DNA of 64,000 bases. It comes from a virus. Its lineage: Duplodnaviria > Caudoviricetes. Both the position numbers and the translations under genes were made by a program. Numbering within the stretch: position 1 is the first letter of the stretch; each line of letters opens with the position of its first letter. The stretch lies in the IMG/VR virus record IMGVR_UViG_3300012280_000034, positions 299 through 64,298 of that record. One strand, 5' to 3'. The notes beneath the pieces were generated by a model. It searched no databases. It was not told the DNA's origin and saw nothing but the letters and a program-made list of their open reading frames with translations. This document shows, piece by piece, positions 5,977-12,136 of this stretch.

Positions 5977-5995
5977 GTAAAAGTAGGTGATATAT

Positions 5996-6571
5996 TTGCA
6001 GTTAGGAGAGAATGAATTTTTGTTATTCAACCCTGATACCGGAGAGATAAAGGGCGTGTTTGATAGCGAAACTCAGACCATTAGAAGTAAAACTCAGGTT
6101 GAATATTATATAAATCATAAACATGAAATAAATTCAGACAAAGTATATGATTTCGGGCAAAGCGGCAAATTTAGTATGCTTAGTGCTTTTTCTATAGACC
6201 AACTTGCTAACGAAGGACTAACAGGTACAGACTATCGGGTTTTAATGACCATGATGGCGGGTGTTGGTTATAAGTCGGGTTATATCTCAATGGGAAACAA
6301 TCACTCGATGACATCTGAATGGATAGCTAAAAAGCTTGATGTTGATAAGAAAACTGTTGACAGAGTAATTAAAAAGTTAATCGATAAAGGAATAATTGCT
6401 GTAAATATAACCGAAAAGAAAAAGTCCTATTTCATGAACCCTTACATTCAATACAAAGGCCGCTGGATAAGCAAAGACCTGTACAATATGTTTAAAGATA
6501 CCAGGTGGGCTAAAAAGGCGGCGGAAGAAAGAGAGAAAGAGGCTAAGAAAAGAGGATTATCTAATGGGTAA
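5996..6571 (+). CDS. RepL-like (Firmicute plasmid replication family) winged-HTH protein
   Basis: IAKKLDVDKKTVDRVIKKLIDKGII wHTH followed by YFMNPYIQYKG; TTG start after AGGTGA SD (track start 5987). Confidence 0.6.
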   Translation: MQLGENEFLLFNPDTGEIKGVFDSETQTIRSKTQVEYYINHKHEINSDKVYDFGQSGKFSMLSAFSIDQLANEGLTGTDYRVLMTMMAGVGYKSGYISMGNNHSMTSEWIAKKLDVDKKTVDRVIKKLIDKGIIAVNITEKKKSYFMNPYIQYKGRWISKDLYNMFKDTRWAKKAAEEREKEAKKRGLSNG

Positions 6572-6869
6572 GCTACTTCACCGACATAATAATTACATAA
6601 TCATCGAAGAAGAAAATAACCGCGGCTGCATCTTGATAAATACCGCAGGCACTTATAAAAACCATGGACATATTAAACGTCTTGAAACGGCTTTAATGAT
6701 GATAAAGCTAATCGAACGTGGAATTGTACCAAAGAGCGATTATCTTCGTGGCACGGCGCTCAGAGTGTCTACAAACGAAAATTATAAACAATCTATATTG
6801 AACAGAATTGAAAAAGATAAAAACAGAGAACATTATGTGAATATAAATAAATGCATAAAAGGCAGGTGA
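6564..6869 (+). CDS. Hypothetical phage protein
   Basis: ORF track; overlaps the upstream stop. Confidence 0.75.
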   Translation: MGKLLHRHNNYIIIEEENNRGCILINTAGTYKNHGHIKRLETALMMIKLIERGIVPKSDYLRGTALRVSTNENYKQSILNRIEKDKNREHYVNINKCIKGR

Positions 6870-6875
6870 TTAAAT

Positions 6876-7352
6876 TTGCCGTATAAAAGAAAATACAACA
6901 AAAGACCAATAGATAGCAGATATTATAACTACTTCGATGTGTGCAAGATGGAAGGCATTGCAGAGACAAGAGCTAAGAATGCTGTATGTGAAAAGAGAGT
7001 TGAAGGAATAAAATATCTTGAAGAGCTGAAGCCCATTGAGCATCTTTTTGAACAGTTTGAAAAGCCTATCAAGGGTGGTATGGTCAATTCCTATGGCATA
7101 TTAAGAAGATATTACGACGAGTGGAAAGCCACGGGAAAAGTTCCGGTTATTCGCTCCGGCAGACCTCCAAAGATAGGCATGGTTGAAAGGAAATTTGATA
7201 TTCCGGAACATGTAGCATTAAAATTTAAGGCAGTCGTGGACAAGGCTAATTCCATGTCAATTAAGAAAGTTACCTATTCGGATATGGCTGCAGTTGCACT
7301 TTCCGAGTTCTGTGACCGCAGACCGCAGTTTTTGGAGGATACAGATGAATGA
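6876..7352 (+). CDS. Putative DNA-binding protein (GRPPK AT-hook-like motif plus C-terminal ribbon-helix-helix-like segment)
   Basis: SGRPPK then VERKFDIPEHVALKFKAVV...TYSDMAAVALSEF. Confidence 0.5.
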   Translation: MPYKRKYNKRPIDSRYYNYFDVCKMEGIAETRAKNAVCEKRVEGIKYLEELKPIEHLFEQFEKPIKGGMVNSYGILRRYYDEWKATGKVPVIRSGRPPKIGMVERKFDIPEHVALKFKAVVDKANSMSIKKVTYSDMAAVALSEFCDRRPQFLEDTDE

Positions 7353-7497
7353 TATTATCTTACTGTTAGCTGCATTTGTTTTAGAAGTAACTTTTTTATT
7401 TAATTTATATGCTTATGGTCGCTGTAAAAACGCGGATTACTATTATATTAAAGAATATCCAGTTCCAAATAGACCAAACGATGATACTCAGCCCTAA
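7345..7497 (+). CDS. 50-aa single-TM protein
   Basis: GGAGG SD; hydrophobic N-terminus. Confidence 0.6.
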   Translation: MNDIILLLAAFVLEVTFLFNLYAYGRCKNADYYYIKEYPVPNRPNDDTQP

Positions 7498-7551
7498 ACG
7501 GGCAGCATAGAACACGCAGCCTTTTCAGGCAGCATATAAAACGAGGTAAAC

Positions 7552-7755
7552 ACGGAAAACAAAGAATTATTAAAAAAGGCGATTGGATTAGTTGAAAACA
7601 CACATAAAGAATTTGATAGTTCTTTTTTAAAACTCAAGCTTGGAATAGGAATTATTTCATGCAACAAGTTAATAGAAAAATTATTAGAACTTGGAGTTGC
7701 TAAACAAGTTATTCAATCGAATGGAACTATAAAATATGAAAAACAGTGCCGTTAA
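7552..7755 (+). CDS. FtsK-gamma-like winged-helix small protein with ACG at the start position
   Basis: 67 open codons (LLKKAIGLVE...SSFLKLKLGIGIISCNKLIEKLLELGV); GAGGT SD 4 nt before ACG; in-frame TAA at 7537 and no ATG/GTG/TTG in the N-terminal part. Confidence 0.45.
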   Translation, partial: TENKELLKKAIGLVENTHKEFDSSFLKLKLGIGIISCNKLIEKLLELGVAKQVIQSNGTIKYEKQCR

Positions 7756-8300
7756 GCGGTAGGATAAAAAGCAGATACTTAAAGTTATATAGTATATATA
7801 CTATATAACAAATGGTATCGAGCAATGTAGTATATATACTAATTGACTCATGTACCAGGTGTACAAGGAGATTCTGATTACGCCATAATGGTGTTTTCTG
7901 ATTAGCCTACCTACCAAGCGTAGGAAAGGAGACCGCTTCAAGTAATGTTTGTTGCGGATTTTGACCCGAAAGGGATTGGTTTATCATTGAGCCGAAATCA
8001 ATGAATTACGGACATATGAGCCGTGCAGGGTATAGGTGGCTGAAAGTTTGGAGTTAAGTGAAAGATACGTAGATATGTGAGGTTAATCGCTTATAGATTT
8101 TACCTATTTACAGGTTTAGATAGGCATAAGTTGAAAGGATATATACTTGTGCTGACTATTTAACTGTCACGGTACAGTGCTTTCTAAGCGTGTTTATAGG
8201 TGTACTTATATTATAGATTGCATATTGGGATTAATTCAAGTAGCGAAGTAGCCAATAAGTGAACAAGCTATCTAATGTAATAGTTCTACCTATACAAATT
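7754..8300 (+). ncRNA. Candidate large structured ncRNA (ROOL/GOLLD/raiA-like class; family unassigned)
   Basis: No ORF of 60 aa or more; long-range helices 7754-60/7932-38 and 8030-39/8286-95; more than ten local hairpins; repeated GAAAG. Confidence 0.6.
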
Positions 8301-8443
8301 ATTGCGGTGGCGGAAGTGGAAGACGCAGTGTAACGGTGTATACAATGGCTCTTGATAATAGAGTGCTGAGTTCCCAGCAATATCGGGCATAAACGAGATA
8401 CCGTGAAAATTATCGTGCAAGGTTCGATTCCTTGCCTGCAATT
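8301..8443 (+). ncRNA. tRNA-like RNA with an expanded anticodon domain
   Basis: Acceptor ATTGCGG/CTGCAAT; Leu-like D-arm TG-GCGG-AAGTGGAAGA-CGC; T-arm GCAAGG-TTCGATT-CCTTGC; ~85-nt branched insert between the arms. Confidence 0.65.
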
Positions 8444-8541
8444 TTAAAAATTAGGTTGGCGTGTAAAACCGCAGGGAAAAATGTTCATTTAGAGCTTAGG
8501 GGTGGGAAGCGAACATAAAAACGCTGAAAGGCGGTGAAAAA

Positions 8542-9048
8542 GTGGCAAAAAGTAAAATAGATAAATCAAATAAAAATAAAGCAATAGATTTAGTTGAAAA
8601 TCCCCTATTGACAGAAAATCCTTTGATTTCAAGTCCTGTTATTTCAGTAAATAATGAACTTGATATGAAAGTTGAGGCGATTCATGAAATTGAATCTCTC
8701 GCTGAATTAAGCAAACAACATTTATCTGCTAAAAGACAGCGTGTCGAACTGGAAGTTGATAATAAAAAGCTTGATACCGCTAAAAGAACAATTTCAACCA
8801 TAGAAAAAATAATATCATCAGTAGCTAAAGAGGAAGTTCTTCAGAGGGTTGCTGATAATATCAAAACTCCGCAGGATATGAAATACATGGCTGAAGCTGC
8901 TGAAAAACTGACAGGAACATTAAGAAACTTGATGAATCCGAATGTTATGGATGAATTCGGCACTAAAAAGCGTACGAAAATCAACTTTATGTTTAAAAGC
9001 TCAGGAGCTGTACAAGCTGCTGTTCAAGTTGAAACTTCTGATGATTAG
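8542..9048 (+). CDS. Probable terminase small subunit (by position and helical character)
   Basis: GTG start with AAGGCGGTGA SD; coiled-coil; upstream of terL; no diagnostic motif seen. Confidence 0.45.
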   Translation: MAKSKIDKSNKNKAIDLVENPLLTENPLISSPVISVNNELDMKVEAIHEIESLAELSKQHLSAKRQRVELEVDNKKLDTAKRTISTIEKIISSVAKEEVLQRVADNIKTPQDMKYMAEAAEKLTGTLRNLMNPNVMDEFGTKKRTKINFMFKSSGAVQAAVQVETSDD

Positions 9049-9057
9049 GGTGATTAA

Positions 9058-9594
9058 ATGATAGATATGTTTAAATATACGGATAAAGAGATAAAAGAAC
9101 TTTTAAAAAGCATGATAATTTTAGTCGATAGCCGGGAAAATGCTAACCAAAATATTACATCATGGCTTGATGAAAAGAAAATACCATATAAAATTGAAAA
9201 ATTAGAATTTTGTGATTACAGCTTTATGCTCCCTGCTAACCTTCCATTAGGATTTAACAGGGATTTATATTTTACTGACAAAATATCAATTGAACGCAAG
9301 GGAAACTTAGAGGAACTTAGTGGAAATATGACAACCGATAGATTGCGTTTAGAAAGCGAATTTATAAGAAGTAAAGGGAAAGTTCATTTACTTATAGAAA
9401 ATGCTTCCTACGAAGAAATAATCAACCACAATTATAAAACAGAATATAATCCTGTTTCCTTTTTAGCAAGCTTACATAGCTTCGCTGACAGATATAATTT
9501 TTCAATAAATTTTATAAAGGATATCAAGTATTCGGCACACTTTATTTATTATACTTTTTACTACTACCTTAGAAATTATTTAATGAATAAATAA
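9058..9594 (+). CDS. ERCC4-domain nuclease
   Basis: ILVDSRE, L...DYSF, SIERKG..EEL motifs. Confidence 0.88.
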   Translation: MIDMFKYTDKEIKELLKSMIILVDSRENANQNITSWLDEKKIPYKIEKLEFCDYSFMLPANLPLGFNRDLYFTDKISIERKGNLEELSGNMTTDRLRLESEFIRSKGKVHLLIENASYEEIINHNYKTEYNPVSFLASLHSFADRYNFSINFIKDIKYSAHFIYYTFYYYLRNYLMNK

Positions 9595-9913: not shown

Positions 9914-10408
9914 ATGAAAAATATTTTAGATAATTTATATGTTGGTAATCAACAGGACTATGAATCAACATTCTTTGATGATGGGTTTTCTTTTTTATTG
10001 GCAGCTAAAGAACCATGGCACAGAGAAACACTTAATTATACGAGTAGGTCTGCTCCAAAAGAACACCCAGAATATCTTTGGGCTTACAGAGATAGAGGAA
10101 CTAAGTTAATTCTTAATATGGTTGATGCTCCCTCTTCCCTATTTTTTAGCAAAGAAATGATAGACGAATCACTTTTATTTATAGAAGAAGAATTGTTCAA
10201 AGGCAGAAATGTTCTTATTTGCTGTAATAAAGGTGAAAGTCGCTCCGCAAGCATTGGACTTCTCTACCTCATTAAAAACGGAATTATTAAAGGTGAAGCT
10301 TTGGAAGATTGCGAAGCTGAGTTTTTAAAACTTTATCCTGACTACAATCCCGGTAAAGGGATAAGGGAATTTGTTAAGATGAATTTTAAGGAGTACAGCT
10401 ATGAGTGA
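9914..10408 (+). CDS. Dual-specificity protein phosphatase-like protein
   Basis: ILDNLYVGN N-terminus and VLICCNKGESRSA CX5R P-loop. Confidence 0.82.
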   Translation: MKNILDNLYVGNQQDYESTFFDDGFSFLLAAKEPWHRETLNYTSRSAPKEHPEYLWAYRDRGTKLILNMVDAPSSLFFSKEMIDESLLFIEEELFKGRNVLICCNKGESRSASIGLLYLIKNGIIKGEALEDCEAEFLKLYPDYNPGKGIREFVKMNFKEYSYE

Positions 10409-10567: not shown

Positions 10568-12136
10568 ATGCCGAGAAAAGGCGGTTCAGTCAGTATTAAA
10601 CAACAGAAAAATGAAAAGTTAATACAACATTCTACATCGGACAAAATGTCAATATGCAAAGAGTGCGGCAAGCCATTTGCACAGGTTTGGCGACCCGAAT
10701 ACGAAGCCTATACGTCATTTCTTACTTGCCCTGAATGTCGAATGCGTAATGCAAGAGGCGGAGTTAATGTTACTGCTGAATATAGTCCTCATTGGGGACA
10801 AGAATTAGTACATAATTCAAAAGCGAGATTCAAAGTAATCAATGCAGGTAACAGGTGGGGTAAAGACCGTTGTTCTATCATGGAAGGCATTCGTTACTTC
10901 ATCGATATACTTAACGAAGAAAGAGATTCGAGCATGGTTCCTCATGCTTTATGGTGGATCATAGCTCCTTTAGATAGATTGGCAAATCAAAACTGGCGAG
11001 AACTCCTGCATAACTTACCTAAAGAATTGGTTGTCGATGTTTCTAAAACAACAAGAACTATCGAAACTATAAACGGCGGCATTATAGAAGTGCATTCGGC
11101 TTATGACCCTGAATCGTTGGTCGGTGTCGGTCTTGACTTGGTTACAATAACAGAAGCTGCACGAATAGCCGATATGGAAGATGTTTGGGATAACATCGAG
11201 GCTCGTTTAGCTTCTCCCGGTAGGGGTTTAAATGGCGAGGGTGGAATGGCGATAATAAATTCATCACCACTTGGCATGAATTTCTTTTATAAGATGTGGA
11301 AATGGGGACAAAAAGAAACTTCTGAATGGGACCCCGATTGGGAGTCGTGGACATTTACTACGTGGGATAATCCTTATATGGCTGAAAGAGGCGATAAAGT
11401 AGCAGCCAACGGAAAGACATATAAAGAAAACCTCAAAAAAAGAATGTCTCGAAATAAATATAGACAAAACTGGATGGCGGAATTTTTATCAAAGATAAAT
11501 GCCGTATTTCCTAATTATGAAAGAGTGTTAAAAAAAACACCTCCTGAACTAACAACTGAAAAAGAAATTAATAATTACTGGAAGGAATGGGAAAAGCCTG
11601 ACCCATATGAAACTTATACGATAGGCTATGACCCTGCGTCTAAGGGCGACGGAAAGCCGTGTGTTATTAGAAATAGCAAGGGAAAAGTTGTCAAAATAGA
11701 TACTATGGATGCCTTGGGATGGGACGCTCAATGGGACAGAATAGCTTTTTATTCAAGGCTATATAACAATGCGCATTGTAATTTCGGACAAACCGGGGTT
11801 GGTGAAACAATTGAATCTCAACTTACAAAGCGTGGAGTAACTAATACTCCTATACCGGAACAAGGAAGAAATAAAGAAAAGCTTGTTGAGGATTTTTCTA
11901 TAATAGTAGAACAACAATGGTGTGAATTTCCGTGGTCGCAGGAGTTAGAAAATCAAATGAAAGATTATATTTCTGTTATGCGACCGGGGCAGTCAACTCA
12001 ATATAAAAACAGTGGATCAGATAGCGAATATGACGACCTCATCAGTGCGTCATATTTTTGTTTTGCAGATTTCCAAACACCTGCTATAACTACTCCGTGG
12101 GTTGGAATTATGATAGGCGTTCAAACAAAGAAATAA
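10568..12136 (+). CDS. terL: Terminase large subunit with N-terminal Zn-ribbon
   Basis: CKEC...CPEC; GNRWGKD Walker A-like; ITEAA Walker B-like; SSPLG coupling motif; IGYDPA and DDLISA nuclease motifs. Confidence 0.85.
   Translation: MPRKGGSVSIKQQKNEKLIQHSTSDKMSICKECGKPFAQVWRPEYEAYTSFLTCPECRMRNARGGVNVTAEYSPHWGQELVHNSKARFKVINAGNRWGKDRCSIMEGIRYFIDILNEERDSSMVPHALWWIIAPLDRLANQNWRELLHNLPKELVVDVSKTTRTIETINGGIIEVHSAYDPESLVGVGLDLVTITEAARIADMEDVWDNIEARLASPGRGLNGEGGMAIINSSPLGMNFFYKMWKWGQKETSEWDPDWESWTFTTWDNPYMAERGDKVAANGKTYKENLKKRMSRNKYRQNWMAEFLSKINAVFPNYERVLKKTPPELTTEKEINNYWKEWEKPDPYETYTIGYDPASKGDGKPCVIRNSKGKVVKIDTMDALGWDAQWDRIAFYSRLYNNAHCNFGQTGVGETIESQLTKRGVTNTPIPEQGRNKEKLVEDFSIIVEQQWCEFPWSQELENQMKDYISVMRPGQSTQYKNSGSDSEYDDLISASYFCFADFQTPAITTPWVGIMIGVQTKK

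Follow-up and report, generated by a model that had tools for sequence, protein, structure and literature searches.

Does the non-coding gap between the replication genes and the packaging genes of a temperate Clostridia-type phage encode one large, ornate RNA? The stretch concerned, positions 7754-8300, comes from an IMG/VR provirus record of 64,298 bases, of which the 64,000 nucleotides (nt) analysed here are called the window. An earlier note had proposed that these roughly 545 nt form a single non-coding RNA, possibly of a known large class such as GOLLD, ROOL or raiA. The description we arrive at is different. Comparison with related loci suggests that 7754-8300 is non-coding cargo of a variable RNA-gene slot, made up of at least three separately inherited modules rather than one ornate RNA, and that the slot, where replication genes give way to packaging genes in a Clostridia-type prophage, is a small tRNA island. 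We hold these two statements jointly and with about even confidence. The stretch is an ordinary-to-mildly-interesting accessory non-coding island; that it is a new giant ornate RNA cannot, as matters stand, be maintained.

A non-coding stretch in a slot of variable content

The stretch falls in a 1.19-kb gap between the genes at 6876-7352 and 8542-9048. The absence of open reading frames (ORFs) that first drew attention to it was confirmed. No plus-strand ORF with a start codon and at least 30 amino acids lies within 7757-8541, the longest stop-to-stop frames of 7754-8300 are 26-33 amino acids, and translation of 7754-8300 in all six frames, with stops read through as X, gave no match to Pfam or PHROG families. 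A decayed gene in 7754-8300 was rejected on the same six-frame read-through.

About 25 syntenic loci were gathered from IMG/VR, GTDB genomes, ENA, Logan and NCBI assemblies by way of the proteins encoded downstream and upstream of the gap. Related prophages occur in Ruminiclostridium hungatei and Tissierella pigra (GTDB genomes), and we therefore take the host to be a Clostridia-type Firmicute. Homologues of the 6876-7352 gene, the 8542-9048 gene, an ERCC4-type nuclease, a phosphatase-like protein and the terminase follow one another in constant order across the syntenic loci. The space between the first two ranges from an overlap (locus L013) up to about 770 nt. The slot in relatives is either empty, with the genes abutting, or filled with varying mixes of true tRNAs, tRNA mimics and short hairpin modules. 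The true tRNAs are Ile in L004, Thr in L005, L007 and L049, Pro in L039, and two in L047; tRNA mimics occur in L004, L028, L039, L041, L047 and L059. Because the flanking genes of relatives abut or enclose such elements, we read 7754-8300 as an accessory load carried in an RNA-gene slot of variable content. The region is lacking in relatives whose replication and packaging genes are the same, so it cannot be an origin, pac site or late promoter on which this phage group depends.

Three parts of the stretch can be told apart: a first domain (7754-7940), a set of three small hairpins called module A (7963-8025, plus strand), and a domain of about 266 nt called module B (8030-8295, plus strand). 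Two of the three, A and B, recur in other phages; 7754-7940 does not. The proposal of one 545-nt RNA is not supported, given this difference in distribution among relatives. Module A occurs together with B in L039 and without B in L041, and its second hairpin, a2, occurs alone in L004, L059, L047 and L049. In L041 the leader of the mimic comes straight after module A, and B is missing exactly at its closing helix, as expected of a self-contained RNA domain or a small mobile insert. No homologue of 7754-8300 was found by blastn in the GenBank phage collection or in three host genomes carrying related prophages. With the whole 547 nt as query, 399 sampled Clostridia genomes returned just short TA-rich chance matches, and loose local alignments to the slots of L047, L049 and L059 were no better than those to shuffled targets.

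Conserved modules A and B

Module A is 91% identical to L039 2528-2593. It consists of hairpins a1 (CCC-GAAA-GGG, 7965-74), a2 (UCAUUGA-GCCGAAA-UCAAUGA, 7984-8004) and a3 (UACGG-loop-CCGUG, 8007-8025). A covariance model, R1, built from the window, L039 and L041, also detects module A in L004 (24.9 bits). The a2 hairpin is found in the same slot of seven phages (the window, L039, L041, L004, L059, L047 and L049). Its CAUUG/CAAUG core is invariant, its loop of 7-14 nt begins with CC (usually RCC) and ends with AAA, and its loop-closing pair is A-U, U-A or G-U, giving one or two compensated pairs. Spacing between the half-sites varies by 5-7 nt, a variation that fits a hairpin but not the fixed operator of a dimer. 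In a3, the UACGG/CCGUG of the window and L039 is UUAAG/CUUAG in L041, which makes three compensated pairs after one alignment gap is moved. The substitutions in L039 and L041 would also allow an alternative hairpin, 7976-83 with 7988-95. Searches with a module A pattern returned two chance matches in viral contigs, both within coding sequence, and no match in metagenomes of the Joint Genome Institute (JGI).

A small peptide frame that overlaps this region (8001-8057, 18 codons) was considered and rejected as coding, since all the differences from L039 that were counted change amino acids, apart from a premature stop. In three of the loci with an a2-type hairpin, L047 (2625-2675), L049 (105-160) and L059 (2225-2262), a hairpin GCTTGCTTAWAGCTTGC and then GTCAAGGTTTT stand directly 5' of it.

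Module B is closed by GUAUAGGUGG and CUACCUAUAC; its ends are conserved and its centre has diverged. It was compared with L039 2595-2866, to which L040 is identical. The first 35 nt or so fall in a block of 91% identity and the last 60 or so in a block of 82%, with adjacent coding DNA at 77%; the centre is barely alignable. Because a non-coding block is 91% identical, against 77% for adjacent coding DNA, selection at the level of nucleotides is indicated. The closing helix, predicted from the window alone as GTATAGGTGG (8030-39) with CTACCTATAC (8286-95), still pairs in L039, where 8035/8290 changes from G-C to A-U. A second helix, GGCUG (8038-42) with UAGCC (8249-53), becomes GUCUG/UAGAU in L039. 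The RNAalifold structure of B was fitted to the same two sequences, and its controls are not independent; the remaining covariation in B lies in poorly aligned columns and was given little weight. Compensatory change, which a structured RNA had been expected to show, amounts in B to two pairs, both in well-aligned ends and seen in two sequences; 7754-7940 has no homologue in which to see it.

No further copies of B turned up in 2.9 million viral contigs, searched with two B patterns, or in the 399 Clostridia genomes, searched with the whole 547 nt; in the JGI metagenomes, the patterns scanned for were those of module A and of the mimic. Module B resembles miniature inverted-repeat elements in that it is an insert of about 266 nt, carries an inverted repeat of 10 bp at its ends, and is found in two phages while being cleanly missing from a third. 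It differs from them in that no target-site duplication is visible at its junctions, no further copies were found, and its inverted repeat changes by compensation, like an RNA stem. In L039, a terminator-like hairpin lies 3' of B, followed by tRNA-Pro.

Such data bear on whether the stretch is simply non-functional filler: remnants left by illegitimate recombination, together with decayed cargo, at a site prone to recombination, its hairpins being due to chance or to (TA)n slippage. The slot is indeed a mosaic whose content is different in almost every relative, a 16-nt motif at the junction is duplicated (7501-7516 and 7528-7543), and an ORF that adjoins the stretch has apparently lost its start codon. 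Module B, whose centre cannot be aligned with L039 and whose folding z score is only about -2, would also suit filler; the ends of B together with module A, 91% identical and so above the neighbouring genes, would not. Changes in stems are compensated, a2 recurs in seven phages, and the z score of 7754-7940, at -6.2, is the most extreme in the phage. We consider filler quite unlikely as an account of the stretch.

A tRNA-Leu-like mimic as a separate gene

On its 3' side the stretch adjoins a tRNA-Leu-like mimic of about 139 nt (8303-8441, plus strand), so the neighbourhood of a tRNA-like RNA gene in a prophage had been recognized correctly. The boundaries of the mimic, at 8303 and about 8441, are sharp, and it is a separate RNA gene. 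Its acceptor stem, D arm and T arm are in place, but where a tRNA has its anticodon arm the mimic has an insert of several hairpins; it escapes both ARAGORN and the Rfam tRNA model. Copies 79-95% identical occur, in different contexts, in at least nine other viral or metagenome contigs (L010, L020-L023, L041, L047, L050 and L051), and none of these loci carries 7754-8300. Their distribution points to an independent gene, not to a 3' domain of the proposed large RNA. Nine of the 34 consensus pairs of the mimic show compensatory changes. Because this covariation support is strong, the slot is taken to encode structured RNA on the plus strand. The core of the mimic, used as a query against metagenomes, found three more mimics and no module A or B.

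Divergent variants of the mimic, with the same arms and a different insert, occupy the same slot in L004 (3666-3812), L028, L039 (2278-2440) and L059.

Folding of the stretch and a single large RNA

Every helix listed in the earlier note, when read directly from the sequence, sits where it had been placed; besides the two long-range helices, AAGCGGT (7754-60) with ACCGCTT (7932-38) and the closing helix of B, these include the hairpins GCATAAGT/ACTTGTGC (8124-52) and ACTGT/ACAGT (8163-78). The count of five GAAAG motifs is likewise correct, and against 0.92 expected per 547 nt at the window's own frequency it is an enrichment of about five-fold. GNRA loops on stems of at least 3 base pairs (bp) are not enriched (one observed, 1.04 expected).

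That the stretch would fold better than dinucleotide shuffles is true of the whole and fails for its larger part. The whole 547 nt gives z -4.08 on the plus strand and -2.91 on the minus strand. For 7754-7940 (187 nt) the value is -6.22; its minimum free energy structure coincides with the centroid and makes up 5% of the ensemble. As a null, 140 windows of 187 nt were sampled over the plus strand of the phage, with a mean z of -0.43 and a standard deviation of 1.29; the minimum, -4.41, came from a sampled window starting at 7787, which itself overlaps 7754-7940. The first domain is the most extreme in folding among the 187-nt windows tested in the phage. By contrast with the whole, 7940-8300 alone scores only -1.19, with 12 of 100 shuffles folding equally well, and better-than-chance folding is limited to the first third of the stretch. 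Frequent G-U pairs had been offered as an argument for RNA over DNA structure. That argument is weak for 7754-7940, where the minus strand also scores -4.68; it has more force for 7850-8028, where the plus strand is favoured at -2.70 against -0.87 for the minus strand. Taken jointly, A and B (7960-8300) score -2.0, and their counterpart in L039 -1.7.

A single large structured RNA of a new family would be about 545 nt long, or about 690 nt with the mimic, and would act as GOLLD and ROOL do, its 5' part evolving fast and its centre being variable. The whole-stretch z of -4.08 speaks for it, and the folding result for 7940-8300 against it. Modules A and B do form an uninterrupted non-coding run of about 335 nt that is conserved in two phages, and a long-range helix predicted beforehand is compensated in L039. 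The helix that closes all 547 nt in the global fold uses a 5' strand that L039 lacks. The 5' part is in no relative, the remaining parts occur separately in relatives, and nothing in the sequences compared appears to link the three. GOLLD and ROOL are often found near tRNAs and in prophages (PMC5737381), so a position beside tRNA-like genes in a prophage is typical of such RNAs, yet no Rfam match was obtained. We regard a single large RNA as improbable.

Comparison with known RNA families

Searched with Rfam 15 at gathering scores over the whole window, the stretch contained nothing, a flanking tRNA-Pro being the sole match. At E<=10 over 7300-8700 on both strands, just four chance rows of microRNA and small nucleolar RNA (snoRNA) models appeared. 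ARAGORN called no tRNA in the gap, and in an Rfam search of the L039 slot its tRNA-Pro alone matched. Membership in GOLLD, ROOL or raiA, raised as a possibility at the outset, is thereby unsupported at either threshold, and no alignment supports the raiA-like junction motifs that had been suggested. GOLLD, ROOL, raiA, introns, transfer-messenger RNA and riboswitch classes are excluded as far as their models reach. A group I or group II intron was rejected on further grounds as well: the flanking genes are complete in relatives without the stretch, and the mimic is a complete unit elsewhere.

ROOL and GOLLD, large ornate RNAs found in prophages and in Firmicutes, are described in Rfam 15, in PMC5737381 and, by cryo-electron microscopy, in bioRxiv 10.1101/2024.12.08.627333. 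What the stretch shares with both is its setting, a non-coding stretch of a prophage beside tRNA-type genes, here probably co-transcribed with them. The setting shared with GOLLD comprises the prophage, the tRNA mimic at 8303-8441 and the true tRNAs in the slot of relatives (PMC5737381). The average length of ROOL, 581 nt, is near the 545 nt here. The covariance models of GOLLD, ROOL (RF03087) and the raiA motif have no match in the stretch, however, and unlike ROOL the stretch is not conserved as a unit, with 7940-8300 at z -1.19. Both classes are defined by an architecture of multistem junctions and pseudoknots, of which the stretch gives no sign in the tests made, pseudoknots lying outside them.

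Phage tRNA clusters can also contain small stable RNAs, such as species 1 and 2 of T4 (rnaC and rnaD). These are likewise short, separately folding non-tRNA RNAs among tRNA or tRNA-like genes, with no assigned function and with variation between related phages. They have no sequence relationship to the stretch, and the island here differs from theirs in lying at the replication/packaging junction of a temperate Clostridia-type phage and in holding one tRNA mimic and no true tRNAs.

The first domain as RNA or DNA

The first domain (7754-7940, strand unassigned) has a closing stem of 7 bp, 7754-60 with 7932-38, around five hairpins: H1 (7774-7819), which contains a 26-nt perfect palindrome at 7784-7809; H2 (7820-7849); H3 (7851-7865); H4 (7880-7894), terminator-like and followed by the U-run UUUUCU; and H5 (7910-7924). 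It has no similarity in the syntenic loci, the GenBank phage collection or the 399 Clostridia genomes, and is an orphan that could act as RNA or as DNA.

Within it, the 14-bp palindrome TAGTATATATACTA has perfect copies at 7790-7803 and 7828-7841, with centres 38 bp apart. These are the only two perfect copies in 64 kb; at up to two mismatches there are four matches, against 0.5 expected. The flanks of the two copies differ, and each pair is self-complementary (GTTATA/TATAAC in one, CAAT(G)/ATTG in the other), which suggests a hairpin more than a shared operator consensus. The twin arrangement is also found, again intergenic, in three viral contigs, L054 (7932-7993), L056 (10199-10260) and L058 (11146-11216), the two centres lying 48, 48 and 57 bp apart, compared with 38 in the window. 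No genes are common to the window and these contigs. The recurrence may point to one binding protein shared by all, or may mean only that (TA)n palindromes form readily.

Further twin matches, in L053, L055 and L057, are TA-rich contig ends. A CRISPR-like mini-array was rejected for the twin repeats, the 38-bp period being too short and the copies only two. An NrdR-box was rejected for TAGTATATATACTA, since the consensus has C and G positions swapped relative to the site.

Directly upstream, a stand-alone frame on the plus strand (7552-7755, 67 codons, open over 7540-7755) would encode an FtsK-gamma-like winged-helix protein. The product falls in Atlas FtsK_gamma clusters (score 0.92, 22/30 matches), and its Pfam FtsK_gamma match, at E 0.11, is below the cut-off. 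The frame contains no ATG, GTG or TTG; an ACG stands at the expected start, 5 nt past a GAGG Shine-Dalgarno sequence. Neither a pattern scan nor a protein search found a homologue of the 7540-7755 ORF. It is either a recently inactivated gene or a gene with a non-canonical start. The N-terminus of the product, KKAIGLVEN, resembles NKAIDLVEN of the 8542-9048 protein, and a direct repeat joins 7572-7598 with 8574-8600. No relative has either this ORF or 7754-7940, and the two look like a single cassette that was inserted.

The best-folding part of the stretch may be a DNA site. In that case the twin palindromes would serve a symmetric protein as operators or as some other binding site, or would be a site of recombination or replication, and the RNA fold would be a by-product; candidate binders are the product of the adjacent winged-helix ORF or a late-gene regulator. 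Restriction of both perfect copies of TAGTATATATACTA to this place in 64 kb fits such a site, as does its location at the early/late junction, just past the replication genes. Both strands fold well, and a DNA-binding-type ORF lies directly upstream, though one without a canonical start codon. The same twin arrangement recurs in three unrelated contigs with distance steps close to one helical turn, but those contigs have no gene in common with the window, and (TA)n-rich palindromes arise so easily that their recurrence may mean little. Self-complementarity of the differing flanks favours a hairpin, and an essential origin, pac site or late promoter is contradicted by relatives that have the same replication and packaging genes and lack the region. 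A DNA role for the first domain is on balance unlikely.

Several results weigh against the description of 7754-8300 as modular cargo of a tRNA island. The first domain is without a homologue, folds nearly as well on the minus strand, and is perhaps not RNA. Module B has L039 as its sole independent homologue, and its fold barely beats shuffles; by the z values for A and B together, its folding is marginally better than chance. No sigma-70 promoter stands out upstream of the stretch, where four promoter-like sites were counted against 6.0 expected. The functions in processing, as partners of the mimic and in counter-defence, set out in the following section, are ones that we only infer.

Possible roles of the modules

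If 7754-8300 is cargo of an RNA-gene slot, the slot may be transcribed rightwards as one precursor shared with the mimic, and RNase P and RNase Z would cut at the tRNA-like ends. In the first domain, a double-strand-specific RNase could cleave the long A-U hairpins to yield small stable RNAs; the domain might instead be the structured 3' end of the winged-helix cassette, or a DNA site bound by a symmetric protein. Modules A and B may serve as leader, processing or stability elements. Alternatively, they might act in trans as partners of tRNA-like RNAs, for example by countering host attack on tRNAs.

A more ambitious proposal is that A and B (7963-8298, about 335 nt), possibly with the first domain, constitute a rare new family of large phage non-coding RNA, made from the same precursor as the mimic and working with it. 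We think this very unlikely. Were it true, the RNA might be, for example, a scaffold or a decoy against host enzymes that target tRNAs, with the centre of B as a swappable specificity domain.

New small RNA families may be represented by the a2 hairpin, by modules A and B in combination, and by the tRNA mimic. Should the modules be expressed, they would be a further sign that phage tRNA islands hold tRNA look-alikes and small folded RNAs besides tRNAs, and that both, as yet uncatalogued, pass from phage to phage in the manner of accessory protein genes. With as many occurrences as they have, a2 and the tRNA-Leu-like mimic could seed covariance models for mapping such islands at scale.

Gene neighbourhood and other elements near the slot

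In gene order, the window presents an integrase and switch region, then a replication module, then a packaging module. The replication module includes a helix-turn-helix protein that resembles a replication initiator (5987-6571), followed by genes at 6564-6869 and 6876-7352. The packaging module includes a 168-amino-acid protein without family assignment (8542-9048), the ERCC4-type nuclease (9058-9594), a dual-specificity-phosphatase-like protein (9914-10408) and the large terminase subunit (10568-12136). The stretch had been described as lying upstream of the terminase; the adjoining downstream gene is in fact that of the 168-amino-acid protein, and the large terminase gene starts only at 10568.

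The 16-nt motif GGCAGCATAGAACACG, present at 7501-7516 and again at 7528-7543, comes just past the stop of a small membrane ORF (7294-7497). L028 and L039 have a single copy at the same junction, directly 5' of the tRNA mimic. The duplicated motif could be a promoter element or a recombination boundary.

The protein encoded at 9914-10408 has weak matches to dual-specificity phosphatase (DUSP) and to Rit1, a DUSP-like initiator-tRNA phosphoribosyl-transferase, and is conserved in phages. In every case it is encoded near the ERCC4-type nuclease and 5' of the terminase gene. Homing-endonuclease-like genes (HNH, YonG_N) have inserted close by in L028 and L061.

The slots of relatives share one module that the window lacks. 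It is marked by CCCTAACRAGCCTC and GCGTAA, and occurs in L028 (2830-2990), L039 (2450-2527) and L059 (1995-2045); the L028 copy ends in a second tRNA-like T arm. At 118-180 of the related viral contig L012, on the minus strand and about 3.3 kb upstream of the syntenic slot, is a type-P1 twister ribozyme that scores 70.5 bits, above the gathering score.

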